This document shows, one piece after another, positions 7,414 through 39,590 of a stretch of DNA of 64,000 nt. The DNA is taken from the IMG/VR virus record IMGVR_UViG_3300032782_000002, one strand, 5' to 3'. Origin of the DNA: a virus (lineage: Duplodnaviria; Caudoviricetes). Each line of letters opens with the position of its first letter. The stretch's first letter is position 1. The position numbers were made by a program, and so were the translations under genes. The notes beneath the pieces were generated by a model. It was given only the letters and a program-made list of their open reading frames with translations. It did no database searches and had not been told where the DNA came from.

Positions 7414-7429
7414 GGCTCTCGCGCCTTTG

Positions 7430-7503
7430 TACCAACGGTCCGATTCGAACGGACACTGTACACGGTCTGAACGTGTTGCCTCTACCAGTTGGGCTACGTT
7501 GGC
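7430..7503 (-). tRNA. tRNA-Leu(CAG), short variable arm
   Basis: Cloverleaf; anticodon arm ACACG-TT CAG AC-CGTGT; TTCGAAT T-loop. Confidence 0.9.
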
Positions 7504-7536
7504 GTGTCAGTAGGTGGTGCGGCCACCTACCCGTAG

Positions 7537-7621
7537 TGCGCACGAGAGGAGTCGAACCTCCACAGGGCTTTCGCCCCGCCAGCACCTCAAGCTGGTGTGT
7601 CTGCCATTCCACCACGTGCGC
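7537..7621 (-). tRNA. tRNA-Leu(GAG)
   Basis: CCAGC-TT GAG GT-GCTGG; long variable arm. Confidence 0.95.
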
Positions 7622-7626
7622 GTTGT

Positions 7627-7654
7627 TTGCAACTTGATACGGATCAGATAAGGT
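7627..7654 (+). promoter_or_regulatory. Putative promoter (16-bp spacer family)
   Basis: TTGCAA-CTTGATACGGATCAGA-TAAGGT just before ORF 7664. Confidence 0.5.
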
Positions 7655-7663
7655 CGGTTCCTG

Positions 7664-8347
7664 TTGGTCTCGTGGAAGTCCTACCGGCCGTCGAGAGTGC
7701 TGACCCCGTACGAGGGCCGTCAGGTTGTACGGGTGCAGGCTGCACTGATGCAGGCCATCGCGCGGGCCGGCGTCAAGATCGAACGTCTTGATAACCCCAG
7801 AGTCCACGCTGTCTACCGGCCGTTGACGAAGACCATCATGCTGACGTCCACGCCGTACCCGCCGTGGGGTCCTCCGCCAGCTGTAGAGCGCCTGTTTACG
7901 CTGGCGCACGAGTTCGGGCACTTCAAGAGTCACGTGCGACACGCCAAAGTGGGGCGTCGAGTCGATCTCGGAAGCGTGCCGCACCAGCTCTTCGAGGAGT
8001 CGCGTGCGTGGAACGAAGCGGGGTACCTGCTGCGCTACTACAGACTGCGGGGCGCGCGCCTGTGGCACTGGTTCGCGCAGGCTGTCGGCATGGCGTTGTG
8101 GCTGAGTGTCAGCGACTACACCGACTACTTCTGGCTGACCGACAAGCTGCGTCGCCAGCGCGTGCGATGTCCGCGATGCCGATCGCGAGCGTTGGTCGTA
8201 CGCAGCTCGTGTGCGGAGCACGCGCTGCTGTGTCGGGCGTGCAAGGCGCACACTCCATCGACGAGATCAGTCGAAAAGTTGGCGGCGCGGATACGTGGCT
8301 CTCGATTCGGCGGTCTTTGCCGATGTCGTCGCGGCTGCACGCCGTAG
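7664..8347 (+). CDS. ImmA/IrrE-like HExxH metallopeptidase with C-terminal zinc ribbon
   Basis: FTLAHEFGH, downstream EESRAW, CPRC...CRAC. Confidence 0.65.
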   Translation: MVSWKSYRPSRVLTPYEGRQVVRVQAALMQAIARAGVKIERLDNPRVHAVYRPLTKTIMLTSTPYPPWGPPPAVERLFTLAHEFGHFKSHVRHAKVGRRVDLGSVPHQLFEESRAWNEAGYLLRYYRLRGARLWHWFAQAVGMALWLSVSDYTDYFWLTDKLRRQRVRCPRCRSRALVVRSSCAEHALLCRACKAHTPSTRSVEKLAARIRGSRFGGLCRCRRGCTP

Positions 8348-8381
8348 CTCCGGGCTTGGGAGTAGTTCCGGGCTTGGGAGT
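8346..8381. repeat. 18-bp tandem duplication of the tRNA-Gln 3' end
   Basis: agctccgggcttgggagt followed by agttccgggcttgggagt. Confidence 0.85.
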
Positions 8382-8442
8382 CGAACCCAATTCACTCTGG
8401 CCCCGCTTCAAAGGCGGGAGGACGAACGCGTCGCAACCCGGA
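8366..8442 (-). tRNA. tRNA-Gln(TTG), atypical D and variable regions
   Basis: CCCGC-CT TTG AA-GCGGG; T arm TTGGG-TTCGACT-CCCAA. Confidence 0.75.
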
Positions 8443-8443
8443 G

Positions 8444-8517
8444 TGCGCACGCTGGGAGTCGAACCCAGAGACCGGTGGGTTTGGGCCACCGAGGTTTGCC
8501 GGTTACCTCACGTGCGC
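8444..8517 (-). tRNA. tRNA-Leu(CAA), short variable arm, C33
   Basis: GGTGG-CC CAA AC-CCACC. Confidence 0.8.
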
Positions 8518-8523
8518 GATCAG

Positions 8524-8608
8524 CGGAGAGTGGAGGTCTCGCACCCCAGTGGGTTTCCCCACCGCGTCGGTTAGCAACCGGGCCTGGCCCTCGGCCAGTT
8601 CACTCTCC
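8524..8608 (-). tRNA. tRNA-Ser(GCT)
   Basis: TT GCT AA loop, long variable arm, G73. Confidence 0.85.
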
Positions 8609-8612
8609 GTAG

Positions 8613-8698
8613 CGGAAGGTAGACGAATCGAACGCCCACGGCTCATCACCGCGCCCTCGGGTTCGGACCGAGTCGCCGACCATTCGGCAGTACCTTCC
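8613..8698 (-). tRNA. tRNA-Ser(CGA), C33
   Basis: CTCGG-TC CGA AC-CCGAG; long variable arm. Confidence 0.9.
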
Positions 8699-8704
8699 AA
8701 GTCG

Positions 8705-8790
8705 CGGAAGACGGAGGACTTGCACCCCAGTGGCTCGCGCCACCGCATCGGTTTCCGACCGAGCCCACGCCTACGCGCGGTTCGTCTTCC
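8705..8790 (-). tRNA. tRNA-Ser(GGA), C33
   Basis: TC GGA AA loop; long variable arm. Confidence 0.85.
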
Positions 8791-8795
8791 AACAG

Positions 8796-8867
8796 TCAGA
8801 GCGGCGGGATTCGAACCCGCTCTACGTGCTCCCCGAGCACGTGTGCAACCGGTAACACTTCGCTCTG
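8796..8867 (-). tRNA. tRNA-Pro(GGG), C33
   Basis: CGTGC-TC GGG GA-GCACG; C1-G72, A73. Confidence 0.9.
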
Positions 8868-8895
8868 ATGGGGCGCTCTTGCGAGCGCCCACCGT

Positions 8896-9453
8896 TCACG
8901 CCGTCTGGGCGACGTCCGTGATGTACGGATGCCACTCGGGCGGTGTCTTGCTCACGTCGATCAGGAACGGTGCATGGTCGACGTTCAGGTGATGCGGCCT
9001 GTGGGGCTGGAAGTGCATCGTGAGCCCTGCCTCGGCCGGCGTGCGCGATCCCTTGCGGGTGTTGCACGGGTAGCAGGTGGTCACGATGTTCTCCCAGACC
9101 GTCTTGCCGCCACGAACGCGAGGCAGCACGTGGTCGTAGTTGAGGTCCTTGGGGTTCTTGCGCTTGCCGCAGTAGCAGCAGCGAAAGCCATCACGGGCGT
9201 AGACGTTGCGTCGGCTGAACTTCACGCCGTCCTTGTGCATCTTGACAGCCTTGCGCAGCCGAACGACGGCCGGCACGTCGAACACCAGCGGGTCACGGCC
9301 CTCGTAGCGGTTGCCCGCCGAACGGACCGTAGCCTGGTAGGTTTCGAGCACGTCGACCTTGTCGTCCACGACCAGCACGATGGCGCCCTGCCACCCCACT
9401 ATCCCGTGCGGGCGCATCCACGGGGACAGTACCAGGGTCCTCAACTCGTTCAC
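8896..9453 (-). CDS. HNH endonuclease (McrA-like)
   Basis: RDGFRCCYCG...DHVLPRVRGG...WENIVTTCYPCNTRKG. Confidence 0.93.
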   Translation of the reverse strand: MNELRTLVLSPWMRPHGIVGWQGAIVLVVDDKVDVLETYQATVRSAGNRYEGRDPLVFDVPAVVRLRKAVKMHKDGVKFSRRNVYARDGFRCCYCGKRKNPKDLNYDHVLPRVRGGKTVWENIVTTCYPCNTRKGSRTPAEAGLTMHFQPHRPHHLNVDHAPFLIDVSKTPPEWHPYITDVAQTA

Positions 9454-9505
9454 GGATCACCTTCGCCTTCGTTGCTTGTACCTGCTCATGGTTGTTCTCC
9501 TGTAG

Positions 9506-9577
9506 TGGGCGCACGTGGAATTGCACCACGACCTGCCGCTTATCAGACGGCTGTCCAGACTACTAGACTATACGCCC
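9506..9577 (-). tRNA. tRNA-Ile(GAT)
   Basis: GCCGT-CT GAT AA-GCGGC. Confidence 0.9.
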
Positions 9578-9578
9578 G

Positions 9579-9654
9579 TGGTACGGGGCAGCGGGATCGA
9601 ACCGCTCAGGACCGGCTTGTCGAGCCGGCGTCCGCACCAGCGAACATGCCCCGT
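9579..9654 (-). tRNA. tRNA-Val(GAC), C33, encoded CCA
   Basis: CCGGC-TC GAC AA-GCCGG. Confidence 0.88.
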
Positions 9655-9676
9655 GTGGATGTGGTAGAAGGAATGG

Positions 9677-10189
9677 ATGTCGATCGTCGTCACGCCGCTG
9701 AGCATCGACAATCCCGACGCGGACATCGGTGCCAGCGTCATCGCGGACGTCGCGGGCGGCGAGACGATGATCTACGAGACGCCGACCGACGACGGCGAGC
9801 TACGCCGCATCCGCGAGATCGGTGTCACTACCGACAGGCCGATCGTTGTCTTCCTGCGCCGCAAGGACGCTCAAGGCATGCAGCTGCGTCGCGTCGGGGT
9901 TGGTCAAGGCGGCACCATCCTCTGGCGCATGGCACCGGAGGAGCCGTGCATCGCGACGAGGGGGAGCCCGCTGCAGCTCTGCGTCGACTCGAAAGAGCAC
10001 ACCGACGTAACCCAGATCACCGCCCACGTGTACTGGGATGCCGTCGCCCGCCCCGCCTTGGTCGAGGAGGCCACCAGGGCGCTGCGTGAGCTGGAAGCGG
10101 GCGCCGTCGTCGAGTGCACCGCCGTGGAGTCGAACCACCATGCCGAGCCGTTCATAGGGCGGCCCCCGGAGCCCGTCCGGGCTAGGTGA
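9677..10189 (+). CDS. Hypothetical protein antisense to the tRNA array
   Basis: Coding-like composition; last ~25 codons overlap a tRNA on the other strand. Confidence 0.6.
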   Translation: MSIVVTPLSIDNPDADIGASVIADVAGGETMIYETPTDDGELRRIREIGVTTDRPIVVFLRRKDAQGMQLRRVGVGQGGTILWRMAPEEPCIATRGSPLQLCVDSKEHTDVTQITAHVYWDAVARPALVEEATRALRELEAGAVVECTAVESNHHAEPFIGRPPEPVRAR

Positions 10190-10195
10190 CGGTGC
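10115..10195 (-). tRNA. Atypical tRNA, anticodon TAT (Ile?)
   Basis: Acceptor GCACCGT/GCGGTGC, canonical T arm, loop CC TAT GA, enlarged D region. Confidence 0.6.
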
Positions 10196-10199
10196 GTAG

Positions 10200-10267
10200 T
10201 TGGACGCCAGGGAATCGGACCCTGCGCTGCTCCGTGTGAGAGAGCTGCTCTCGCCAGATAGCGTCCA
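10200..10267 (-). tRNA. tRNA-Val(CAC), shortened D arm
   Basis: GCTCT-CT CAC AC-GGAGC. Confidence 0.7.
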
Positions 10268-10273
10268 GTGAAG

Positions 10274-10343
10274 TCGCAGCGAAGGGACTCGAACCCTAGA
10301 CACAACGCGTATGAAACGTCGGCCTCACCTTGAGGGCGCTGCG
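10274..10343 (-). tRNA. tRNA-Met/Ile2(CAT)
   Basis: TT CAT AC loop; canonical T arm. Confidence 0.75.
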
Positions 10344-10344
10344 G

Positions 10345-10417
10345 TTGCGGGGGCCGTGTTGCACCGGCGTGGCCAGGGTTATGAGCCGTGGTCGGGACTA
10401 AGTCCACCCTCCCCGCG
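10345..10417 (-). tRNA. Initiator-like tRNA-fMet(CAT)
   Basis: CGCGGGG acceptor with C1:A72 mismatch; CT CAT AA loop. Confidence 0.85.
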
Positions 10418-10418
10418 G

Positions 10419-10490
10419 TGTCCTCGGAAGGAATCGAACCTTCATCGCTGGTTCCGTAGACCAGAGCCTTATCCGTTGGGCTACGAGGAC
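10419..10490 (-). tRNA. tRNA-Arg(ACG)
   Basis: CTGGT-CT ACG GA-ACCAG; canonical cloverleaf. Confidence 0.95.
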
Positions 10491-10514
10491 AGATGATGCG
10501 TGACGTTGCGCAGT

Positions 10515-10757
10515 TTACTCTGCCGTGCCTTCGCGCACGGCTTGCTTGTCGAGCTGACGGCCTTCCTTCGCGGCGAGGCGCGTCCACAGCTTGCGGTTGC
10601 GGCGCAGGATCTTATCCGTCGAGCCGAACGCCCGCCGCTGGGCCAGGAGCCATCCGTGGTGGTCGCTGCGAGGGCGTACCGTGGGTACCTTGCGGGCCCC
10701 GGCTTTCTCGACGCCAGGGTGATCGCCAGCGGTCGGGTGCTTGTTCGAGCGGGACAT
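10515..10757 (-). CDS. Small basic protein within the tRNA array
   Basis: 80-aa Arg/Lys-rich ORF filling the gap between two tRNAs. Confidence 0.55.
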   Translation of the reverse strand: MSRSNKHPTAGDHPGVEKAGARKVPTVRPRSDHHGWLLAQRRAFGSTDKILRRNRKLWTRLAAKEGRQLDKQAVREGTAE

Positions 10758-10774
10758 GGCGTCGAGCCTACCAG

Positions 10775-10843
10775 TGCCTCCGGACCGAGTCGAACGGTCA
10801 TGACCAAGATTCGTATTCTCGGCACCAGTCCCCTGGCGGAGGC
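10775..10843 (-). tRNA. Second tRNA-Arg(ACG), atypical D arm
   Basis: CGAGA-AT ACG AA-TCTTG; canonical T arm. Confidence 0.7.
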
Positions 10844-10844
10844 G

Positions 10845-10878
10845 TCTCTTCGCCGGGAGTCGAACCCGGACACGGCTT
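10845..10878 (-). pseudogene. Orphan tRNA 3' half (Arg-like)
   Basis: T arm CCGGG-TTCGACT-CCCGG plus acceptor strand CGAAGAG-A; no matching 5' half nearby. Confidence 0.7.
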
Positions 10879-10981
10879 TGCCCGACAAGTCGCGCCTGCC
10901 CGACAAGTCCCCCGGCTGCCCGGTAATTGCGCGTAGCGTTACCGTAGACCGTCCGTGCGGTAGTGGGATACGACGGGGGCC

Positions 10982-11623
10982 GTGCCCATCGATCGCGCTA
11001 GGCCGGAGCCGTCGAAGTTCAACTCCAAGCTCTCTCTGCCATACCAGCTCCGCATCGACGACTTCAAGCTGGCGATGCAGGACATCTACGACTTCTTCTA
11101 CGACGTGAACAACCTGCTCGCGTCGAAGGGTCTCGCCCGCCTGGACGACATGCTGCGTCCCGCGGGCATGTCCGGGCTTCTCTCCGACATGCTGACGGCC
11201 AGCCTCTCCAAGCACTCGCGGACGCTGACGGAGAACCTGCACCACAACGGGCACCCGGACCTCATCGTGCGAGGCAAGTATCCCAAGAACGCCATCGAGT
11301 CCGGGACGGACGGTGTGGAGATCAAGACGACCCGAAAGAAGGGCGGCGCCGTGGACACGCACGGAGCACGGGACCAGTGGATGTGCGCCTTCGTCTACGC
11401 CGTGGACAACAGCACCGAACCCGCGGTGGATCGGCGTCCGATGATGTTCACTGAGGTCTACCTGGGACATGTCACGAAGTCCGACTTCCGAAAAAACCCA
11501 CGCGGGGAGCTGGGGACGCGCACGGCGACGCTCGATAAGGACGGTATCGCTAAGCTCCGCGTGAGCTGGCTTTACCTCGACGAGAAAAAGGAAGAACGAG
11601 ACTTGAAGAAGTGGCGCCGCTGA
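10982..11623 (+). CDS. Putative Type II restriction endonuclease
   Basis: HPDL...VEIK PD-(D/E)XK motif; convergent with the DNA methyltransferase. Confidence 0.7.
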   Translation: MPIDRARPEPSKFNSKLSLPYQLRIDDFKLAMQDIYDFFYDVNNLLASKGLARLDDMLRPAGMSGLLSDMLTASLSKHSRTLTENLHHNGHPDLIVRGKYPKNAIESGTDGVEIKTTRKKGGAVDTHGARDQWMCAFVYAVDNSTEPAVDRRPMMFTEVYLGHVTKSDFRKNPRGELGTRTATLDKDGIAKLRVSWLYLDEKKEERDLKKWRR

Positions 11624-12521
11624 CCTCGATGCGGGCGAGGCGGGGGATTGCTTCCGCTGCCGTGGCGAAGTACGTCGCGTCCAGTTCGATGCCGATGCTC
11701 TGGTAGCCGATCGACTCGGCAGCGGCGATGGTCGAGCCGCCGCCCATGAATGGGTCGAGTACGATGCCCTCGCCCAACGGCAAGGATGCCCGCACGAGCT
11801 GGCGCATGAGCGCTTGTGGCTTTAGCGACGGATGAGGGGCGATGCTGCGCTCCCAGCGTCGCGTCGGGGCCGATTGGATCACGTCGGAGAACGGCTGGTC
11901 CGCTGAGATGCGCCGCAGCGCCCCAGCCTTCCACTTACGGAGGTTGTCCTGTACGCGCCCCTCGACGGGCTTGCGAAACAGTCCCCACGGTTCCCAGCCC
12001 GACCGCGGCATCACAGTCACGTCGTCGAACTCCTCGTGCGCGTTCTTCGGTCGGTCGCCACCGCGAAGTGTCTGGACGAGACGGATGATCTCGCCACGCT
12101 TCTCGAAACCCGCCTCGATGAACGGTCCCCACGTCACGTGTGAGAGCAGAGGATTCGATGCGATAAAGACGTGGCCGCCTGGGACTAGGACGCGCATGGC
12201 GCCCTCAGCTAGCCGCACGAAGAAGTGGCGCAGGGCCACCTTGTCCGTATCGGTCAGCACCGTGAAGCGCGGGAGCGGGCTGCGCTCGTGGCCGTCGAAC
12301 GACGGGGGGATGCGCCACACGCCACCGCGCCCCTTACGGAGCTTGCCCTTCTCTTCGTCCGTGTACTCCTTCACACCGTAGGGCGGATCGGTCACGATGG
12401 CGTGGATCGACTGCGGAGCCCGCTCAGCCATCCACACGAAGCAGTCCGCGTTGTGGATCGTGTAGCGGCCATCGCTGAGAGAGCGTCCCGTTCGGACGGT
12501 GACGGCAGCTCTCGCCTTCAC
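11550..12521 (-). CDS. DNA methyltransferase, N6-adenine/N4-cytosine, beta class
   Basis: VTDPPY precedes HPSLKP and LDPFMGGGST; probable GTG start at 12521. Confidence 0.92.
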   Translation of the reverse strand: MKARAAVTVRTGRSLSDGRYTIHNADCFVWMAERAPQSIHAIVTDPPYGVKEYTDEEKGKLRKGRGGVWRIPPSFDGHERSPLPRFTVLTDTDKVALRHFFVRLAEGAMRVLVPGGHVFIASNPLLSHVTWGPFIEAGFEKRGEIIRLVQTLRGGDRPKNAHEEFDDVTVMPRSGWEPWGLFRKPVEGRVQDNLRKWKAGALRRISADQPFSDVIQSAPTRRWERSIAPHPSLKPQALMRQLVRASLPLGEGIVLDPFMGGGSTIAAAESIGYQSIGIELDATYFATAAEAIPRLARIEVSGATSSSLVLPFSRRGKASSRGA

Positions 12522-12675
12522 GACGCGGCCCCGTCGTGCGCCTGGCGCACAGCGCCAGTAACCCGGATCCGCGACCCCACAACCACCGTTCTTTTCGGCG
12601 TCGTATGGCGCGGCCCACAGACCATCCACACCTGAACACACACGGCTTTTCCACCGGGGTTGCGCACAGGTTGTC

Positions 12676-12864
12676 CTACTTCTTCCCGGCTGCTTGGCGC
12701 GGGACATCCCAGTGGACCGACTTGCACTTGGGACAGAGCTTCGGCCGCACGTCCTCTGCCGCCATCCCACGCGGCACGTTCTCCGCCCGGGGCCCTCGCG
12801 CCTGCCATTCGTGCCCGCACCGCTCGCAGCGGTAGCCGGGCACCTTCATCGTGATGCTCGCCAT
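12676..12864 (-). CDS. Small zinc-ribbon protein divergent from the transposase
   Basis: CERCGHEW...CPKCKSVHW. Confidence 0.75.
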   Translation of the reverse strand: MASITMKVPGYRCERCGHEWQARGPRAENVPRGMAAEDVRPKLCPKCKSVHWDVPRQAAGKK

Positions 12865-12921
12865 ACCCAGGGACCTTACGCACGAATTACTCCACGGTCA
12901 AGGTTTCTTTGCCGGTAAGCC

Positions 12922-12950
12922 TTGACGAACTTACCTAGCCGGGTAATAAT
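12922..12950 (+). promoter_or_regulatory. Transposase promoter (leaderless mRNA)
   Basis: TTGACG-17 bp-AATAAT, 6 nt before ATG 12957. Confidence 0.6.
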
Positions 12951-12956
12951 AGGTGC

Positions 12957-14069
12957 ATGGTTGACGCGCGGCAAGAGAAGGGGCGGTCCCTGGCTAGGGA
13001 CAAGCGGATCCGCAAGGTCGAGGGCGCGACGTGGTACGTGCCCTCCGAGTCCAAGAACGAGGGCGGCTACCTCGTGAACATGCTCGGGCAGACCTGCTCG
13101 TGCCCGGACCACGAGACCCGGATGTGCAAGTGCAAGCACATGTGGGCGGTGGAGTTCGTGCAGACCGTCGAGGTCGCGGCGGACGGCTCCGCGACGATGA
13201 CCGAGACGGTCAAGGTCACGCGGAAGACCTACGCGCAGGACTGGCCGGCCTACAACGCCGCGCAGTGCGCCGAGAAGGAGACTGCCGCCGTCCTGCTCCG
13301 GGGCCTCTGCGACGGCATCCTGAGCCCGCCCCAGGCCGGCCGTGGGCGTCCCCGCACGCCGCTCTCCGATGCCGTGTTCGGGATGGTCACGAAGGTCTAC
13401 ACGACCGTCTCGGGACGGCGCGCCTCGACGGACCTTGAGGCGTGCGCCGAGGCAGGCCACATGCGCAAGGCCCCCAAGTACAACACCCTGTTCGACTACA
13501 TGGAGAAGCCCGAGCTGACGCCGCTGCTCACGCGGCTGGTCGAGGAGAGCGCCGCACCGCTGGCGTGCGTCGAGACGCAGTTCGCGGCCGACTCCACCGG
13601 CTTCTCCACCGTGACCTACCGCCGCTGGTACGACGCCAAGTACGGCCACGAGATGAAGGAGCACGGCTGGATCAAGGCGCACGCGATGGTCGGCACGACC
13701 ACGAACGTCATCACCGCGATCCGCGTGACCGACTCCGACGCGCACGACGGCCCCGAGCTTCCCGGGCTGGTCAAGGCGACCGCTCAGCGGTTCACCATGG
13801 GCGATGTCTCGGCCGACAAGGCGTACCTGTCCCACGCGAACCTTGCTGCCATCGAGGCCGCGAACGCCGTCCCCTACATCCCGTTCAAGTCGAACAGCAA
13901 GGGCGCTGGCCCGGCCGCGTGGCGTCGCATGTGGGGCCTGTTCATGTACCGGCTGGAGCCGCACCCTGCGGCTTCACCTGCACTGCTCCGGATGGAGCAT
14001 GGAGCGGATCGCGGGAATCGGACCCGCCTGGTGCTGCTTGGAAGGCAGCTGCGGCGCCTTGCCGCCTGA
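12957..14069 (+). pseudogene. SWIM zinc finger plus DDE (IS4/IS5-like) transposase, C-terminally truncated near 13951
   Basis: CSCPDH..CKCKHMWAV (SWIM), ADSTGF, ADKAY; no third catalytic Glu region; the tail is translated antisense tRNA sequence. Confidence 0.8.
13951..13981 (-). pseudogene. Orphan tRNA 5' half (Gly-like)
   Basis: GCAGGTG-AA-GCCG CAGGGTG CGGC-T-CCAGC, then transposase sequence. Confidence 0.55.
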
Positions 14070-14074
14070 TCCGC
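14000..14074 (-). tRNA. tRNA-Gly(TCC), encoded CCA
   Basis: GCTGC-CT TCC AA-GCAGC; U73. Confidence 0.9.
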
Positions 14075-14078
14075 ACGG

Positions 14079-14149
14079 AGCCACGTGTTGGATTCGAACC
14101 ACCTCGCTCGCTTACAAAGCAAGTGCATCGCCGCAATGCTTCACGTGGC
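14079..14149 (-). tRNA. tRNA-Thr(TGT)
   Basis: CTTGC-TT TGT AA-GCGAG. Confidence 0.82.
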
Positions 14150-14154
14150 GTCAG

Positions 14155-14226
14155 AGCCGACGAGGGGAGTTGCACCCCAGCCCGTCCCCGTACCAAGGGG
14201 AAGCACCACTCCGGTGCTGCATCGGC
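14155..14226 (-). tRNA. tRNA-Thr(GGT)
   Basis: TCCCC-TT GGT AC-GGGGA. Confidence 0.88.
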
Positions 14227-14230
14227 GTGC

Positions 14231-14297
14231 CAGGAGGTCAGGACGACCCTTGCGGGTGGCGACCTCCCACTTCCCGAGCCGTGAGGCTCGCGTCCTG
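14231..14297 (-). ncRNA. Pseudoknotted structured RNA abutting the tRNA-Ala 3' end
   Basis: Two crossing 7-bp helices plus two tetraloop hairpins. Confidence 0.55.
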
Positions 14298-14368
14298 TGG
14301 ACCTGCGGGGAGTCGCACCCCTGACGACCGCGCGTGCAAAGCGCGTCGGCTGCCTCCAGCACAAGCCC
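14298..14368 (-). tRNA. tRNA-Ala(TGC)
   Basis: G3:U70; CGCGC-TT TGC AC-GCGCG. Confidence 0.85.
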
Positions 14369-14374
14369 GAGCAG

Positions 14375-14445
14375 TGGACCGAGCCGGAATCGAACCGGCA
14401 TCTCTGGCTTGCGACGCCAGCATCTTCCCGTTAGACGATCAGCCC
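14375..14445 (-). tRNA. tRNA-Ala(CGC)
   Basis: G3:U70; CTGGC-GT CGC AA-GCCAG. Confidence 0.9.
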
Positions 14446-14446
14446 G

Positions 14447-14517
14447 TGGAGCGCGCGGGAATCGAACCCGCATTCCGAGACTGCCAGCCTCGTGTCCTCC
14501 CGTTGGACGAGCGCCCC
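14447..14517 (-). tRNA. tRNA-Ala(GGC)
   Basis: G3:U70; CGAGG-CT GGC AG-TCTCG. Confidence 0.92.
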
Positions 14518-14749
14518 GTTGTACTATCAGCCCGAAGACGAACCGCGACGACTCTCGGTCACGCTACGCAGCAGACCACGCCGTAGTCCTTCAGCTTCGA
14601 CCGCCTTGAACTCGCGCCGCCACCGCCTGCCGTGCATGCGCGACACCGGATGGTCCGGATCGATTCGAACAGGTGGTATGTCAGCTCCTCGTAGCGACGC
14701 AGGAGCCGCCCGTCAGATAGGTCGCGAGCGGCCATGCGAACGAGTCTAG

Positions 14750-14820
14750 CACCGGGCGAAGGAATCGAACCTTCTCGACGCGGGTTTTGGAGGCCCGCCG
14801 GCGACCATCGCCTGCCCGGC
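14750..14820 (-). tRNA. tRNA-Trp(CCA)
   Basis: CT CCA AA loop; G73. Confidence 0.85.
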
Positions 14821-14826
14821 ATGAAG

Positions 14827-14898
14827 CGCCTCGTAGGGGACTCGCACCCCTCTCACTCCATAGACAGTGGAGCTGCGACACTCGTCGCATCACGAGGC
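14827..14898 (-). tRNA. tRNA-Asp(GTC)
   Basis: CTCCA-CT GTC TA-TGGAG; G73. Confidence 0.88.
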
Positions 14899-14972
14899 AA
14901 GAGCGGCGACAAGAATGGCGGAGACGAACTTTTCCATGGTGTAGTCCCCACCGCATTCGCCGCGATCATCAG

Positions 14973-15045
14973 CCTCCTCGCCGCGAGTCGAACGCGGAGC
15001 ACGCGGTTTAGGAAACCGCAGCCGGGGATCCGCCCGGACGAGGAG
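14973..15045 (-). tRNA. tRNA-Arg(CCT)
   Basis: GCGGT-TT CCT AA-ACCGC. Confidence 0.85.
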
Positions 15046-15129
15046 AGGCGCAGCCGGCGAGCACGGTCGCATAAGTCGAACACCCCGAAGGGCACCCGGA
15101 TCGTACGCGCGGACATCGCTGCTGCGCGG

Positions 15130-15203
15130 GGTGAGTAGCCGGAGTCGAACCGAGCTTCGGCGGGTTCACAGGCCGCCCTCGTTACCGAACGAGTACACCC
15201 ACC
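15130..15203 (-). tRNA. tRNA-His(GTG)
   Basis: G-1:C73; CT GTG AA loop. Confidence 0.88.
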
Positions 15204-15216
15204 ATAACAGTTGCAG

Positions 15217-15291
15217 TCAGGGAGGCCGGAGTTGCACCGGCACCTTCCGCTTCCAGAGCGGGGATGCTGAGCTGTTGAACACTACTCCCTG
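15217..15291 (-). tRNA. tRNA-Pro(TGG), C33
   Basis: C1-G72, A73; TC TGG AA loop. Confidence 0.82.
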
Positions 15292-15292
15292 G

Positions 15293-15366
15293 TCAGTGCG
15301 GCCGGATTCGAACCGGCACTACTCGCTCCCGAAGCGAGGGTGCTACCGTTGGGACACTACGCACTG
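15293..15366 (-). tRNA. tRNA-Pro(CGG)
   Basis: CTCGC-TT CGG GA-GCGAG. Confidence 0.92.
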
Positions 15367-15483
15367 ATTGGCGGCGCTTTCGCCGCTGTCACCCCTGTTC
15401 GTTCCCTTCGCCCGCCGACCGAGGATGCGTCGCGTTGGCTAGCCCGCGTGCTTCCAGGCACTCTGAGGGGCTCGGGTTCTGCG

Positions 15484-15558
15484 TGCACGGCCGTCGAATC
15501 GAACGACGTTCTTCCGCTCTTCAGGCGGACGCTGAATGACCACACTAGCTCGCCGTGC
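15484..15558 (-). tRNA. tRNA-Phe(GAA)
   Basis: TCCGC-CT GAA GA-GCGGA. Confidence 0.9.
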
Positions 15559-15565
15559 ATTGTCG

Positions 15566-15637
15566 TACACCGTACGGGAGTTGCACCCGCCTCGCGAGCT
15601 TGAAAGGCCCGCCGCCACACTCGCTGCGTCACGGTGC
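15566..15637 (-). tRNA. tRNA-Glu(TTC)
   Basis: CGGGC-CT TTC AA-GCTCG. Confidence 0.85.
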
Positions 15638-15641
15638 GTAG

Positions 15642-15714
15642 CGCCCCCACTGGGAATCGAACCCAGCTCTCCTGATTGAGGGTCAGGTGACTTGAGCCTC
15701 TGGTCGATAGGGGC
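15642..15714 (-). tRNA. tRNA-Glu(CTC), C33
   Basis: CCTGA-CC CTC AA-TCAGG. Confidence 0.88.
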
Positions 15715-15788
15715 GTTATGTTAGAAAAGGCCGGTTGCCTTGAACATGGCCGCGACCTGCGCGGTCTTGTTCAAGCAAGCTGCCATAG

Positions 15789-15857
15789 AGCCGGATGAGG
15801 GAGTTGCACCCTACCTGCGCGGAGTACGAACCCGCGATGGTCCTCGACCGATCCGGC
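15789..15857 (-). tRNA. tRNA-Thr(CGT), short D arm
   Basis: GCGGG-TT CGT AC-TCCGC. Confidence 0.78.
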
Positions 15858-15861
15858 GTAG

Positions 15862-15934
15862 CGGTGCGTGGAGGAATCGAACCTTCCTGTCGGCAGGCTA
15901 ACAGTCTGCTGCTGGGCCATTCAGCTTACGCACC
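15862..15934 (-). tRNA. tRNA-Asn(GTT)
   Basis: CT GTT AG loop; G73. Confidence 0.85.
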
Positions 15935-15940
15935 ATGAAG

Positions 15941-16013
15941 CTCCGGGAAGAGGAATCGAACCCCTGCAGGACTCGTGAACAGCGAGTTGCCCAAGCCATC
16001 AGGCGCTCCCGGA
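15941..16013 (-). tRNA. Second tRNA-Asn(GTT)
   Basis: ACTCG-CT GTT CA-CGAGT; U1-A72, G73. Confidence 0.85.
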
Positions 16014-16103
16014 ATTGCGCGGCGTCTTACGAGACAGCCCGCGCGTCTTCACACACGAACACGGAGAGGCACCATGCGCCCGTTCGGGTCGCCGCCACGT
16101 CCG

Positions 16104-16123
16104 TTCAAGTTTTCAGGGAGCAA
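16104..16123 (-). promoter_or_regulatory. boxA-like antitermination element
   Basis: TTGCTCCCTGAAAACTTGAA resembles the rRNA-operon boxA (GCTCTTTGAAAACT-like). Confidence 0.5.
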
Positions 16124-16144
16124 AGCGTGGCTGCCGCCATCGCC

Positions 16145-16220
16145 TGGTTGGGGCTGAGGGAATCGAACCCCCATAAGCAGGGTCAGAGACTGCTGTCCTA
16201 TGCCATTGGACGAAGCCCCA
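16145..16220 (-). tRNA. tRNA-Gln(CTG), encoded CCA
   Basis: U1-A72; CT CTG AC loop. Confidence 0.92.
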
Positions 16221-16221
16221 G

Positions 16222-16293
16222 TGCGCTCGGACGGAATCGCACCGTCACCTCAACGGGTAAGAGCCGCGTGTGCTACTTTGACACTACGAGCGC
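16222..16293 (-). tRNA. tRNA-Lys(CTT)
   Basis: CT CTT AC loop. Confidence 0.85.
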
Positions 16294-16301
16294 GCGTCAC
16301 G

Positions 16302-16374
16302 TGGGCCCGGAGGGAATCGAACCCTTCACCTCATCGGGTAAAAGCCGAGTGTGCGACCGTTACACCACGAGCCC
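16302..16374 (-). tRNA. tRNA-Lys(TTT)
   Basis: CT TTT AC loop; canonical T arm. Confidence 0.9.
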
Positions 16375-16433
16375 CTGATCTCCTTGGTTGGGCTCGCGTT
16401 TGGTTCTGCGGATCATCGTCGCTCTCGTCTTCG

Positions 16434-16515
16434 TGTAGCGGGGTGGAGTCGAACCACTCGCCGTAGGCCACGGTTTTACAGACCGCTTGGGCATGCCCTG
16501 CCCTCGTCCCGCTAC
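16434..16515 (-). tRNA. tRNA-Tyr(GTA)
   Basis: GCGGT-CT GTA AA-ACCGT; long variable arm. Confidence 0.85.
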
Positions 16516-33703: not shown

Positions 33704-36376
33704 TCACGCTTCGATCTCCTCGGCATTGGGGTCGGCGGCTTGCTTGGCCTTCATGCGCTCGTACAGACCCTTGAGCACCTGGACGGGCGTCTTGTCGCCG
33801 CCCTCCAGATCCCTCTGCAGGCCGTCGCTGCTCTTGCCGACGCTGTCCTTGAAGTCGCTCATCTTGCGGATGATGGTGTCGCGAATCAGCTCGTCGGCCG
33901 TGCCGCGCGCGACGACGTACTGGAAGAGCGTGCGCATCTGCTGGCGGAAGCGGTGCATGCGGCCCTCCCACTGCACCAGCTTGCTCGGCACGTACGGCAG
34001 CTCGGCGCAGATGCCGATGTTGGCGTAGGTCAGGTCCAGGCCCACGCCCATCGAGTCGATGGTCGCGCAGAGCACTGTGGGCTTGGCCTCGATGATGGCG
34101 CGCCTCTTGGCGGCCCCGACTTCCCCGTGGATGACCTGCGCGTCGACGCCCTCGCCACGCAGCGCGTCCGCCAGCTGCTCGGCCACGATCTTGCGCCACG
34201 TGCCGATGACGATCTTGCTGCCCGCCTCGGCGTGGCTGTACGCGAGCGACGCGACGTCGTTGAGCTTGCCGTCGGCCGCCATGTCGAGCGCGCGGCGCAG
34301 CGACTCGTCGTTCTGCAGCGCGACGGCCATGGAGAGCTGGAAGCGCCGCTCCACGTCGACCTCGATGATCTGCCGCGTACGCGGCGGAAGCTGCATGCCG
34401 ACGTCGTCCTTGGTCCGGCGCAGCATGAAGAACGACAGGCGACGCTGTAGCTCCGGCAAGTCCGAGCTGCCCTTGGTGTTCCACACGACGCGCTCGGCGC
34501 TGATGCGCTCTTGGAAGGCCCCCGTGTGCTTTTTGTAAAAGGCGAATGGTGCGCCGAATCGGCCTTCGCTCATCACGTTGATGGGCGCCCAGAGATCCCG
34601 CGGGCGGCTCGTCATCGGCGTCGCCGACAGCAGCATGCGGCTCTCAGCCAGCTTCGCGAGCTTCTCGGCCGCGCGCGTGCGCCGGGCCCGGTCGCCCATC
34701 AGCATGTGGGCCTCGTCGAAGATGATCGTTCTGGCACCCCACGCGAGCAGGATGTCCGTCCAGGCGTAGAGGATGTCGTAGTTGATGATGACGATCTGGA
34801 TGTCGCCGTCGGGCTTGAGCAGCTGCGCCTGCTCGTACGTGTCGCGCGCAGCCTTCGAGGGCGGCTTGACGCCGGTCGTCTCGATGATGCGCTTGAGCTG
34901 CCCCTTGTTGTCGGCGGTAGCCTTCGCCAGTGCGATGGTGTCGAGCGCCATCTTGGTGTTGGCCAGATCCTCGGGGCTCGTCTGAACGCCGGTCAGCACG
35001 AGCACCTTCTGCCCCGGCCATCCGGCGGGGGTCGGTGGATCGAGCTTCGCGTCACCTTCGAGCCCCGTGACCCAGACGCCCTTGAGGAATGTCGGGCACA
35101 CAATGATGGTGCGCCCCCGTAGGGCGCGCGCTGCGCGAAGCGCCTGTACTGTCTTACCGCAGTTGTGGACGACGATGCCGTCGGCAACGAAGTTGCGGTG
35201 CGGATCGGCGCAGACGATGTCGTAGACATGCGTCTCGCCGTCCGGACGCACGCGGACCACACGTTCCTTGTGGGGGAAGAACACGACCTCCCCGCCTTTG
35301 CCGCCGATGCCGCCGTGCAGATGACGGAACTTCTCTTCCTCACCGTGCAGCTGCGCGTGCACGCTCTTGGTCATCAGTTCGAGGTTCGCGAGGCGGTTGT
35401 CGTCCTTGATGCCGTTCTTGTGGTGGACGATCTCGTCATCGGTAAGGTACCGCCGGAGGTGGGCCTCCATGACGAGCCGGTGTTCGGGAACGCGCCCACC
35501 AGCCCGCGGTGGGTGATCGTGCATGCCGCTGACGAGGACGTACCCGTCCGCGTCGTAGTGGCGGCCGCCGATGGATGTCGGCTTCGTGCGCAGGTGGCGG
35601 TAGATACACGTGCGACAGTGCCCGGTGAACCGCGGTCTGGATGGATACGACGGGGTAGTAGTGACGCCCTTGGTGGATCCGCACCGACGGCATCGTGCGC
35701 GGCCGTTGGCCAGCACGTACTGGCCTGGGCGTAGGGTGTCGGCTCTCACGAAGCCGTCAGGTGTTCCGATCTCGTGATCGGGTGTGACGCGGATCGTCTT
35801 GCCCGAGTCGAGTTCGACGCGCACGACTGCTCGCACACCACGATCGACGACGTCTCGGATCGGGTGCAGGCGCAGTGTGTCCCCGCAGAGCGAACGCACG
35901 TAGGTCGGAATGGACGGGCGCCACGTCTTGCCGCCGTGGCTCTTGCCGCCGTGGAACTTGTGGTGGAGGGCCGCGAGCTTGATGACGAAGCTCTTTGCGG
36001 CGCGGCTTACACGCACGGTGGCCTCGCCGTCAACGCAGCCGACTTCGTCGGCGAGGAACGCGCCCTCGCCCGAGTGCACGACCAGGAACTTGACGCCGTC
36101 CTTCTGGTAGTCGCGCAGATCCGTGAACGAGATGGGCGCCAGCACGTTCTTCGGGATGGCGCCGGGCGACGGCAGCCGGCTCATGTCGATGCGCAGCTTC
36201 TTGGCGGCGATGCGCCGCGCGGCCGCGTCCACCGCGTCCACGTAGCCAACCCACGCCTTGCGCTCGGCCGCCCAGTGCAGGCCCGGTGTGGCCTTGCACT
36301 CCTCGCGCACGGTGGGGCTGTAGATCGGCGTGTGGATGCCCCACTCACTGCCGCCGTAGTGTCGTACGAGGATCAT
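33704..36376 (-). CDS. SNF2/HARP-like DEAH helicase containing an intein
   Basis: LRDYQ, LADEVG|CGKT, IIFDEAH, LSATP, LRRTK, QWEGRMHR. Confidence 0.92.
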   Translation of the reverse strand: MILVRHYGGSEWGIHTPIYSPTVREECKATPGLHWAAERKAWVGYVDAVDAAARRIAAKKLRIDMSRLPSPGAIPKNVLAPISFTDLRDYQKDGVKFLVVHSGEGAFLADEVGCVDGEATVRVSRAAKSFVIKLAALHHKFHGGKSHGGKTWRPSIPTYVRSLCGDTLRLHPIRDVVDRGVRAVVRVELDSGKTIRVTPDHEIGTPDGFVRADTLRPGQYVLANGRARCRRCGSTKGVTTTPSYPSRPRFTGHCRTCIYRHLRTKPTSIGGRHYDADGYVLVSGMHDHPPRAGGRVPEHRLVMEAHLRRYLTDDEIVHHKNGIKDDNRLANLELMTKSVHAQLHGEEEKFRHLHGGIGGKGGEVVFFPHKERVVRVRPDGETHVYDIVCADPHRNFVADGIVVHNCGKTVQALRAARALRGRTIIVCPTFLKGVWVTGLEGDAKLDPPTPAGWPGQKVLVLTGVQTSPEDLANTKMALDTIALAKATADNKGQLKRIIETTGVKPPSKAARDTYEQAQLLKPDGDIQIVIINYDILYAWTDILLAWGARTIIFDEAHMLMGDRARRTRAAEKLAKLAESRMLLSATPMTSRPRDLWAPINVMSEGRFGAPFAFYKKHTGAFQERISAERVVWNTKGSSDLPELQRRLSFFMLRRTKDDVGMQLPPRTRQIIEVDVERRFQLSMAVALQNDESLRRALDMAADGKLNDVASLAYSHAEAGSKIVIGTWRKIVAEQLADALRGEGVDAQVIHGEVGAAKRRAIIEAKPTVLCATIDSMGVGLDLTYANIGICAELPYVPSKLVQWEGRMHRFRQQMRTLFQYVVARGTADELIRDTIIRKMSDFKDSVGKSSDGLQRDLEGGDKTPVQVLKGLYERMKAKQAADPNAEEIEA
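35162..36037 (-). mobile_element. Intein with HNH homing endonuclease (292 aa)
   Basis: Starts CVDGEA; block B TPDH; ends VYDI...NFVADGIVVHN|C; internal EHRLVME...VHHKNGIKDDNRLANL. Confidence 0.92.
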
Positions 36377-38009: not shown

Positions 38010-38819
38010 TCAGCGGGTTTGGCGGGTGTACCGGTCGGTCAACTGCCGCAGCCGGCGCCCCGAGATCCCCTCGCGGGTGCGCGCTTCGGCCATGGCTGCC
38101 TCGGCGCCTCTGCAGAGCTTGTCGTAGAAGGCGGGCGCGTCGAAGGGCGCGGCCTCGACGATGCCCGAGACGGAGTTGAGCGCTTCGTCGGCGTACCGAA
38201 TGAGCAGCGCTTCGTGCTCGTCGGTGTCGTTGACGAGATCGGCGAGCATCCGGTTGCGGATCTCCTCATGGCTGATCCGGGGCCCGGCGGTATTGTCGGG
38301 GTTCTCGATCCACTCCACCATCAGCTCGATGGTCCCGGCGCAGTACGGCGCGTCGCACCGGCACGGGTGCTGGCTCTTGTCGATCGCCGCTTTGAGCCCC
38401 AGCCACCCGTAGTGGATGGTGATCTCCTCGCCGGCAGCGATGGGGCGCGTGGCGCGCACGAGCAGCGCGCTGTATTCGACGCGGCCCCACCGCGCGTTGG
38501 GTCGGCACGAGTGGTTGATGAGGTGCGCGCCGATCGCGTCGAGCTTCTCGGGGTAGAGATGAGCGTTCGTCGACGGCAGCAGCGCGGCGTACTCGTTGAT
38601 GAACTCGAAGCGCGCGCGATCGGTGGCGTGCAGCGCGAAGAGAGCCGTCCGGTCGATGGTCTTGCCGAGGTAGGCCGCGACGAAGTCGCCGGGCTTGAAG
38701 TCGCGCGTGGCGTACAGGCCCCGCATCGACTCGCCGGAGGGTAGCTGCCGCTCGCCGATGCGTATGCCCTCGTGGCGCAGCGCGCGGGTGATGTGTTTGC
38801 GTTCGGTCCAGGGTTTCAT
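38010..38819 (-). CDS. SET-domain protein with post-SET Cys motif
   Basis: RGLYATRDF, LINHSCRPN, IAAGEEITIHYG, CRCDAPYCAG. Confidence 0.9.
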   Translation of the reverse strand: MKPWTERKHITRALRHEGIRIGERQLPSGESMRGLYATRDFKPGDFVAAYLGKTIDRTALFALHATDRARFEFINEYAALLPSTNAHLYPEKLDAIGAHLINHSCRPNARWGRVEYSALLVRATRPIAAGEEITIHYGWLGLKAAIDKSQHPCRCDAPYCAGTIELMVEWIENPDNTAGPRISHEEIRNRMLADLVNDTDEHEALLIRYADEALNSVSGIVEAAPFDAPAFYDKLCRGAEAAMAEARTREGISGRRLRQLTDRYTRQTR

Positions 38820-39590
38820 GCGCGTAGCGACTCCGCCATCTCGCGGTGGCACTCGGGACTGCAGATGCACTCGCGATCCCCGCCCAGCGCCTCGACGGCC
38901 TTGTAGATGTCCTCGCCGCAGTTCATGCAGCGCCCCACCCGGACCTGCGTGCCGGGTGTCCACGGGATGTACTCGCCCACGCCGGCCCCGAATTGCCCGG
39001 CGGTGGGGTCCACGATCTCGCCCTGCGGTGTGACGCACCACCAGTGCTCGACGCGCCCGGCGGGAGCGACCATCACGTGCCCCGGGATCGCCTTCAGCTC
39101 CGGAAACGTCTCGACCATCTCGCGCGTCGCGCTCTGACACGTGCCGTAGAGGCGGTCGTGATGGCGCTTGGCGAACGCAGCGATCCACGCAGCATACTCA
39201 GGGTTCATGAGCCTCCTCACATGGCGGCAAGCTTGCGCAGGCAAAGCTTGCAGGTGACCTTCTCACGCTGGCGCGTCAGGTTGCGCACCGCGACGTAGAC
39301 CGTGTCGCAGATCTGCGCGCCGTCCTCGGCGTAGTGGACCTTGCGCGGCGTGAAGTGCAGGACCTCTTCCTTGGTGGCCTGGCGCGCTTCGGCCCAGCGC
39401 GGGTACACGTCGCGGCCGCCCAGCGCCAGGAACCGCTCGCGCAGCAGGGTCTGGATCTCCTCGGCGGCGAGCTGCAGTCGCACGTAGTCGGCTGCCGGGA
39501 AGATGCCGAGGATGCTGATCTCGACCACCGTGGCGATCGGGAATCGCGGCGGCGCCGTGAACGGGAGCTTCGGATCGTCCTTGTCGTCGC

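Follow-up and report, generated by a model that had tools for sequence, protein, structure and literature searches.

A structured spacer in a viral tRNA array is probably a degenerate tRNA-Glu fragment

Is the compact, hairpin-rich sequence that directly follows a tRNA-Ala gene in a viral tRNA array a new kind of ribozyme, a tRNA mimic, or the debris of an ordinary tRNA? The element makes up a 71-nt spacer (14297-14227, minus strand) between tRNA-Ala(UGC) and tRNA-Thr(GGU) in a window of 64,000 nt, by which we mean the whole stretch of DNA that was analysed; the GC content is 63-72%, with an overall figure of 68%. The window is part of a 122-kb contig, and a near-identical gene set is found on a 221-kb contig. 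Its minus-strand array (7429-16515) holds about 40 tRNA-like genes, among which lie an HNH gene, a DNA methylase and a DDE transposase. Relatives of the HNH protein were found in syntenic arrays adjoining capsid and portal genes; therefore, the source is most likely a large GC-rich phage. Several tRNA genes within 7430-16515 are missed by ARAGORN at default settings because their loops are deviant, including Pro (15216-15289), Asp (near 14824-14893), Met (10344-10416) and two Ser tRNAs (8518-8611 and 8699-8794).

A first-pass annotation had read the spacer as a pseudoknotted RNA starting exactly at the tRNA-Ala 3' end. The start is real but not special, since 31 of the 34 ARAGORN calls in the array end in C. 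For most of these calls the C directly follows the discriminator, and C14297 probably corresponds likewise to the first C of a CCA end. The four proposed helices (Table 1) are all present on the minus strand where they had been placed, and all pairs are Watson-Crick. P1 and PK do cross, as had been claimed; however, both need G14239, so they cannot coexist in full and no more than 23 pairs can form together. These pairs occupy 46 of the 67 nt (69%) of the interval first assigned to the RNA, which is at odds with its description as paired at nearly every base.

Table 1. Features of the spacer and its two flanking genes (window coordinates)
Feature	Position	Strand	Basis
tRNA-Ala(UGC) gene, upstream neighbour, no encoded CCA	14298..14368	-	ARAGORN, sequence
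Helix P1, 7 bp	14297-14291/14245-14239	-	Watson-Crick
Helix P2, 6 bp	14290-14285/14280-14275	-	Watson-Crick
Helix PK, 7 bp	14267-14261/14239-14233	-	Watson-Crick
Helix P3, 4 bp	14257-14254/14249-14246	-	Watson-Crick
Like tRNA-Glu positions 20-26, D-stem 3' strand; also P1 5' strand	14291..14297	-	Glu covariance model begins at model position 20; 7.7 bits in arm model
Anticodon-arm-like hairpin (P2), 5-bp stem with 6-nt loop or 6 bp with 4-nt loop; no intact anticodon	14275..14290	-	Stem match, pair probability 1.0
Variable-loop-like linker	14271..14274	-	Glu covariance model, arm model
T-arm-like element, 5-bp stem (14270-14266/14256-14252), 9-nt loop, 2-nt insertion, no T-psi-C	14252..14270	-	Glu covariance and arm models
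P3 hairpin with GNRA loop, built from T-stem 3' strand and acceptor 3' strand	14246..14257	-	Helix check
Acceptor-3'-strand-like heptamer and G at the discriminator position (G73)	14244..14251	-	Models; 5.1 bits
17-nt tail with most of the P1 and PK 3' strands	14227..14243	-	Helix check, folding
tRNA-Thr(GGU) gene, downstream neighbour	14155..14226	-	ARAGORN, Rfam

By a pair-count score that was designed after the element had been seen and is tailored to it, 23 pairs were reached by 3 of 20,000 dinucleotide shuffles, and about five other places in the window reach 23 too. The nested minimum free energy (MFE) is modestly better than that of shuffles (z -1.9 to -2.3). In the nested ensemble of ViennaRNA, which cannot form knots and has P1 and PK together outside its model, pair probabilities are at least 0.94 for P2, PK and P3 (1.0 for P2) and 0.00 for P1. 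The combination of PK, P2 and P3 has an energy of -28.1 kcal/mol, against -25.9 kcal/mol for P1, P2 and P3; as modelled, nested folding prefers two hairpins without the 5' helix P1. A glmS-like double-pseudoknot register using a 4-bp helix (14270-14267/14259-14256) was rejected, having no glmS motif and a nested probability of 0.00.

The element is probably a 5'-truncated, degenerate tRNA-Glu(CUC), spanning roughly positions 20-73 and followed by a 17-nt tail that folds back. Its bases 1-54 are in register with positions 20-73 of phage tRNA-Glu(CUC), and the parts follow in tRNA order: the D-stem 3' strand, an anticodon arm with a short loop, the variable loop, a T arm with a 2-nt insertion and the acceptor 3' strand. 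Compared with tRNA-Glu(CUC) of large GC-rich phage arrays (L007:7612-7685 and L008:3986-4059; RF00005), it has the same arm order and spacing, a 4-nt variable loop and G73; the 5-bp anticodon stem is identical to that of both genes, and 24 of 27 positions match the L008 gene. In contrast to these genes, it lacks positions 1-19 and the CCA, its anticodon loop is 6 nt long, its T loop is 9 nt long without T-psi-C, and its tail pairs back in competition with the T stem. Both the anticodon and T loops are thus damaged, no acceptor 5' strand is present upstream, and neither ARAGORN nor Rfam calls the element a tRNA. The earlier suggestion of a tRNA mimic was right about a tRNA connection, but taking P1 as the acceptor (a 7-bp stem followed by ACC) fits worse than the tRNA-Glu register.

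The T-arm-like element shares bases with the PK 5' strand and cannot form together with P3; in nested folding of the present-day sequence, its stem reaches a probability of only 0.04. Of 37 true phage Glu tRNAs, 25 have a hairpin of 3 bp or more within the last 16 nt, comparable in position to P3. Descent from a tRNA accounts for one hairpin and probably for the other as well. On this reading the D-stem strand, the anticodon arm and P3 come from the tRNA, and only the double pairing of the tail remains to be explained; the tail itself may be D-arm or 5'-end sequence of a tRNA.

The element was aligned with 1,567 array tRNAs and spacers. The top two alignments were of bases 1-26 with the L008 tRNA-Glu(CUC), noted above, and of bases 19-47 with a tRNA-Gln; they fall in the same tRNA register, each alone with p ~0.05, and several of the weak matches of a model of the element are tRNAs as well. 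With a sequence-only Glu HMM, bases 2-53 matched positions 21-71 at a score reached by 11 of 2,000 shuffles, or by 127 of 2,000 after allowing for all models, and this weakness after correction counts against the tRNA-Glu remnant. With a Glu covariance model built on 37 related phage tRNAs, the element matched model positions 20-73, truncated on the 5' side (14.7 bits, E 2e-4); the chance of this match is ~5e-3 by an empirical control before isotype correction, and the E-value becomes ~0.08 after correction for 16 isotypes. In a structure-aware arm model, Glu scored 24.7 bits, the next isotype 11.8 and the opposite strand below 0. This model was designed after the resemblance had been noticed and allows loop indels, so that its p values are optimistic: the Glu score was reached by 0 of 10,573 dinucleotide shuffles. 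Since the element has a real hairpin, helix-keeping nulls were also run. With all four helices kept, 2 of 14,090 sequences reached the score as the best of 16 isotypes. With the pseudoknot kept (n = 40,699), the counts were 1 for Glu, 3 for Glu without two look-alike rows, 0 for Glu(CUC) and 153 for non-Glu tRNAs. Almost every spacer with a higher arm-model score than the element can be recognised as a tRNA or tRNA-like gene that ARAGORN had missed. The tRNA-Glu signal is robust to the controls run.

It is known that RNase P cuts the 5' ends of tRNAs and that host nucleases process their 3' ends. A rearrangement of the fast-changing phage array probably left the tRNA-Glu remnant between tRNA-Ala and tRNA-Thr; the short sequence GGTCCA, present at the tRNA-Ala 3' end and also in the D-loops of some phage Glu tRNAs, may mark the site of the left junction. 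The element would then be co-transcribed in the array precursor, and a spacer of at most 71 nt would be released by ordinary processing, with RNase P acting at tRNA-Thr and host 3'-processing nucleases at tRNA-Ala. The released piece would for the most part form two hairpins, one made by P2 and the other by PK around P3, to which P1 could be added; presumably unable to be charged or to decode and having no catalytic job, it would then be degraded. Consistent with a remnant, the array contains a second tRNA fragment, a 15-nt copy of a tRNA-Gln 3' end (8363-8349), and related arrays have nothing, or else unrelated sequences, at the corresponding slot. The tRNA-Gln(UUG) copy, also on the minus strand, sits right after its gene and before a 743-nt insert, and looks like an insertion scar. 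A decayed tRNA fragment matters little, save as a caution for ribozyme-like readings: tRNA remnants in GC-rich phage arrays give ready-made helices that can be read as a ribozyme-like pseudoknot.

Homologues were sought with one sequence and exact patterns as queries, a design that distant members could escape. About 70 related array loci were gathered by means of the HNH protein and the tRNA-Ala end, and their Ala-to-Thr slots held nothing or RNAs unrelated to the element. When these loci and 50 whole viral records were searched with a covariance model of the single sequence, no match was credible and the top-scoring array sequences were tRNAs. BLAST of the element or its region against phages and plasmids returned chance fragments only. 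Exact-pattern scans gave 0, 0 and 1 chance match in viral sequences, 16 chance matches with no tRNA there in another scan, and 13 chance matches in GTDB; a loose topology descriptor gave many chance matches. In metagenomes scanned with the tRNA-Ala 3' end, the element followed in 0 of 48 loci. Rfam had no match over the spacer at the gathering score or to E 10, and literature searches found no described RNA of such form. A homologue search for covariation was one of the checks that the first-pass annotation had proposed for its reading; it yielded no homologue and hence no covariation, the computational half of the outcome named there as counting against that reading. Homology to a slot spacer RNA shared by L001 and L030 was considered and rejected, as the pairwise p of ~0.008 is not significant among 249 spacers and a model of the L001/L030 RNA misses the element. 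A possible likeness to the linkers of glutamine, ZTP and c-di-GMP-II riboswitches has no Rfam support.

It is conceivable, though doubtful, that the tRNA-Glu-derived RNA has been exapted, in which case selection would have rebuilt both loops and the tail to let P1 and PK stack as a compact pseudoknot. Such an RNA might be a stable small RNA cut from the precursor, or a folded trailer that covers the base following the tRNA-Ala discriminator and thereby times 3' maturation. The 23 pairs, with P1 and PK both free of mismatches, are in line with this, as are two further G-U pairs by which the sequence could extend PK on the tRNA strand only, and the occurrence of other structured spacers in related arrays. 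In addition, the indels hit both functional loops and leave the stems intact, and the T-loop insertion lies within the PK helix and looks like remodelling, which argues against pure decay. With random tails and the head fixed, both crossing helices form in 0.6-1% of trials. This rarity also speaks against a plain tRNA-Glu remnant; it is suggestive as a single test but unremarkable for a scan over many spacers, a 1% event being expected among many spacers and windows. Against exaptation, moreover, stand the missing homologues and covariation, the lack of any weight for P1 in nested folding, and folding in context, which gave no sign that the element insulates tRNA-Ala, although ViennaRNA misfolds tRNA-Ala as well. 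The argument for an exapted pseudoknot is that of the perfect helices and no other, and a functional pseudoknot is possible but unsupported. We think it unlikely that the phage fashioned from the broken tRNA-Glu a dedicated pseudoknot at the tRNA-Ala 3' end, in which a new tail pairs with the D-stem strand and T loop and which controls or performs the release of this end. If this were true, the element would capture a new structured RNA in the course of emerging from a tRNA; if the knot is functional, it would be a small system in which the remodelling of a tRNA into a processing element or small RNA could be tested. Phage T4 has stable RNAs, species 1 and 2, in its tRNA cluster. By description, these and the element are alike non-tRNA pieces that processing of the flanking tRNAs would release; however, the T4 RNAs are stable, whereas the element is known here from its sequence alone. 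Bacterial Y RNAs have been proposed to originate by remodelling of tRNA (PMC4201824).

We give rather little credence to a collapsed Y-RNA-like RNA or circularly permuted tRNA mimic, in which PK would be the terminal stem, or the tail would supply a sealed acceptor hairpin and D-stem to give a cloverleaf opened at the D-loop. What suggests it is a YrlA-like permuted tRNA in the corresponding slot of two relatives, L114 and L146. Bases 29-46 match the outer-stem strand of the L146 RNA (its 5' stem strand) at 16 of 18 positions, with an A-U for U-A swap (p 0.009 among 10 syntenic spacers); therefore, the ancestry of the element may be mixed. A permuted cloverleaf can also be drawn (-24.4 kcal/mol), but it lies 9.5 kcal/mol above the MFE. 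YrlA-type Y RNAs (RF02553) are defined by a T arm, an acceptor-like hairpin, a D arm and invariant tRNA loop bases (PMC4201824). The element resembles them as a tRNA-derived RNA in a phage tRNA array; unlike them, it does not have the T-then-D arm order, it has no intact T-loop motif and no match to RF02553 in Rfam, the Ro60-binding motif GNCGAAN0-1G is absent near its 5' end, and tblastn found no Ro60/TROVE relative in the 64-kb window.

A new or decayed self-cleaving ribozyme that frees the tRNA-Ala 3' end is, on our analysis, very improbable. Theta ribozymes are minimal HDV-like ribozymes at phage tRNA 3' ends, and need G1 at the tRNA end and a catalytic C in J4/2 (PMC10879173). Like them, the element directly follows a tRNA, and its start at +1 lies within the 5 nt of the tRNA 3' end where a cleavage site is expected (PMC10879173), a positional match only. 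A relaxed HDV-like descriptor also fits its front half, in the order of HDV P1-P2-P3 (P1, a 25-nt J1/2, P2, a 3-bp P3 and a CC-containing L3); however, the first base is not G, L3 starts with A and not U, and zero nucleotides are available where P1.1, P4/L4 and J4/2 with its catalytic C belong. The absence of P1.1 and J4/2, with 0 nt between the P1 and P2 3' strands, bears out the earlier statement that this is not a canonical theta or HDV-like ribozyme. Core motifs of hammerhead, twister, pistol, hairpin and glmS ribozymes were absent from both strands, and Rfam gave no match to E 10. In the related arrays, the HDV descriptor with C had 8 matches against 6, 6 and 7 for inactive controls, i.e. 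no excess and no theta ribozymes, and the array of the element is not a gut phage array with many such elements. With no catalytic motif of any known class, no homologue and no covariation, the proposal of a new self-cleaving element is without support; position is in favour of the ribozyme reading and nothing else is. An HDV reading of the plus strand was discarded, being antisense to the array and having neither G1 nor J4/2.

Several other spacers of these arrays appear structured. The RNA in the Ala(UGC)-Thr(GGU) slot of L146 (3960-4150, minus strand) and L114 (~11540-11693, minus strand) is a circularly permuted tRNA-like RNA, with a T arm, a closed acceptor hairpin, a D arm and an anticodon arm within an 11-bp outer stem, the sequence of which differs between the two phages while pairing is kept. 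It matches YrlA weakly (23 bits, gathering score 69), and near-identical copies are present in L123, L136, L138 and L156. The Rfam-negative spacer shared by L001 (3739-3813, plus strand) and L030 (4731-4810, plus strand), the only two members found, follows tRNA-Ala. It contains two inner hairpins, a purine-rich strand that is conserved, and a 5' hairpin with a loop that might pair to the 3' end; one compensatory change was seen in the 5' hairpin. In L163:4026-4113 and L026:8313-8399, long outer stems surround two hairpins and a similar TTAGYAG strand; for the L026 spacer, Rfam gives nothing meaningful. A motif around GAGTCCAAAGG with a hairpin after it recurs in spacers, mostly beside tRNA-Arg(UCU) (L001:4520-4684, L008:5179-5303, L009:4770-4850 and L163:4759-4940). 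Within the window array, the non-tRNA spacers at 14893-14971, 15046-15129, 15367-15482 and 15715-15787 (minus strand) seem self-complementary and have no Rfam match. The layout of the Gln-to-Asn spacer (16014-16144, minus strand), a TTGA-A/C-AA box followed by hairpins, is conserved across related arrays and is possibly an internal promoter or an RNA. Elsewhere in the window, an SNF2 helicase gene (33704-36376, minus strand) carries an intein that bears an HNH domain, and a SET-domain protein is encoded at 38010-39188.
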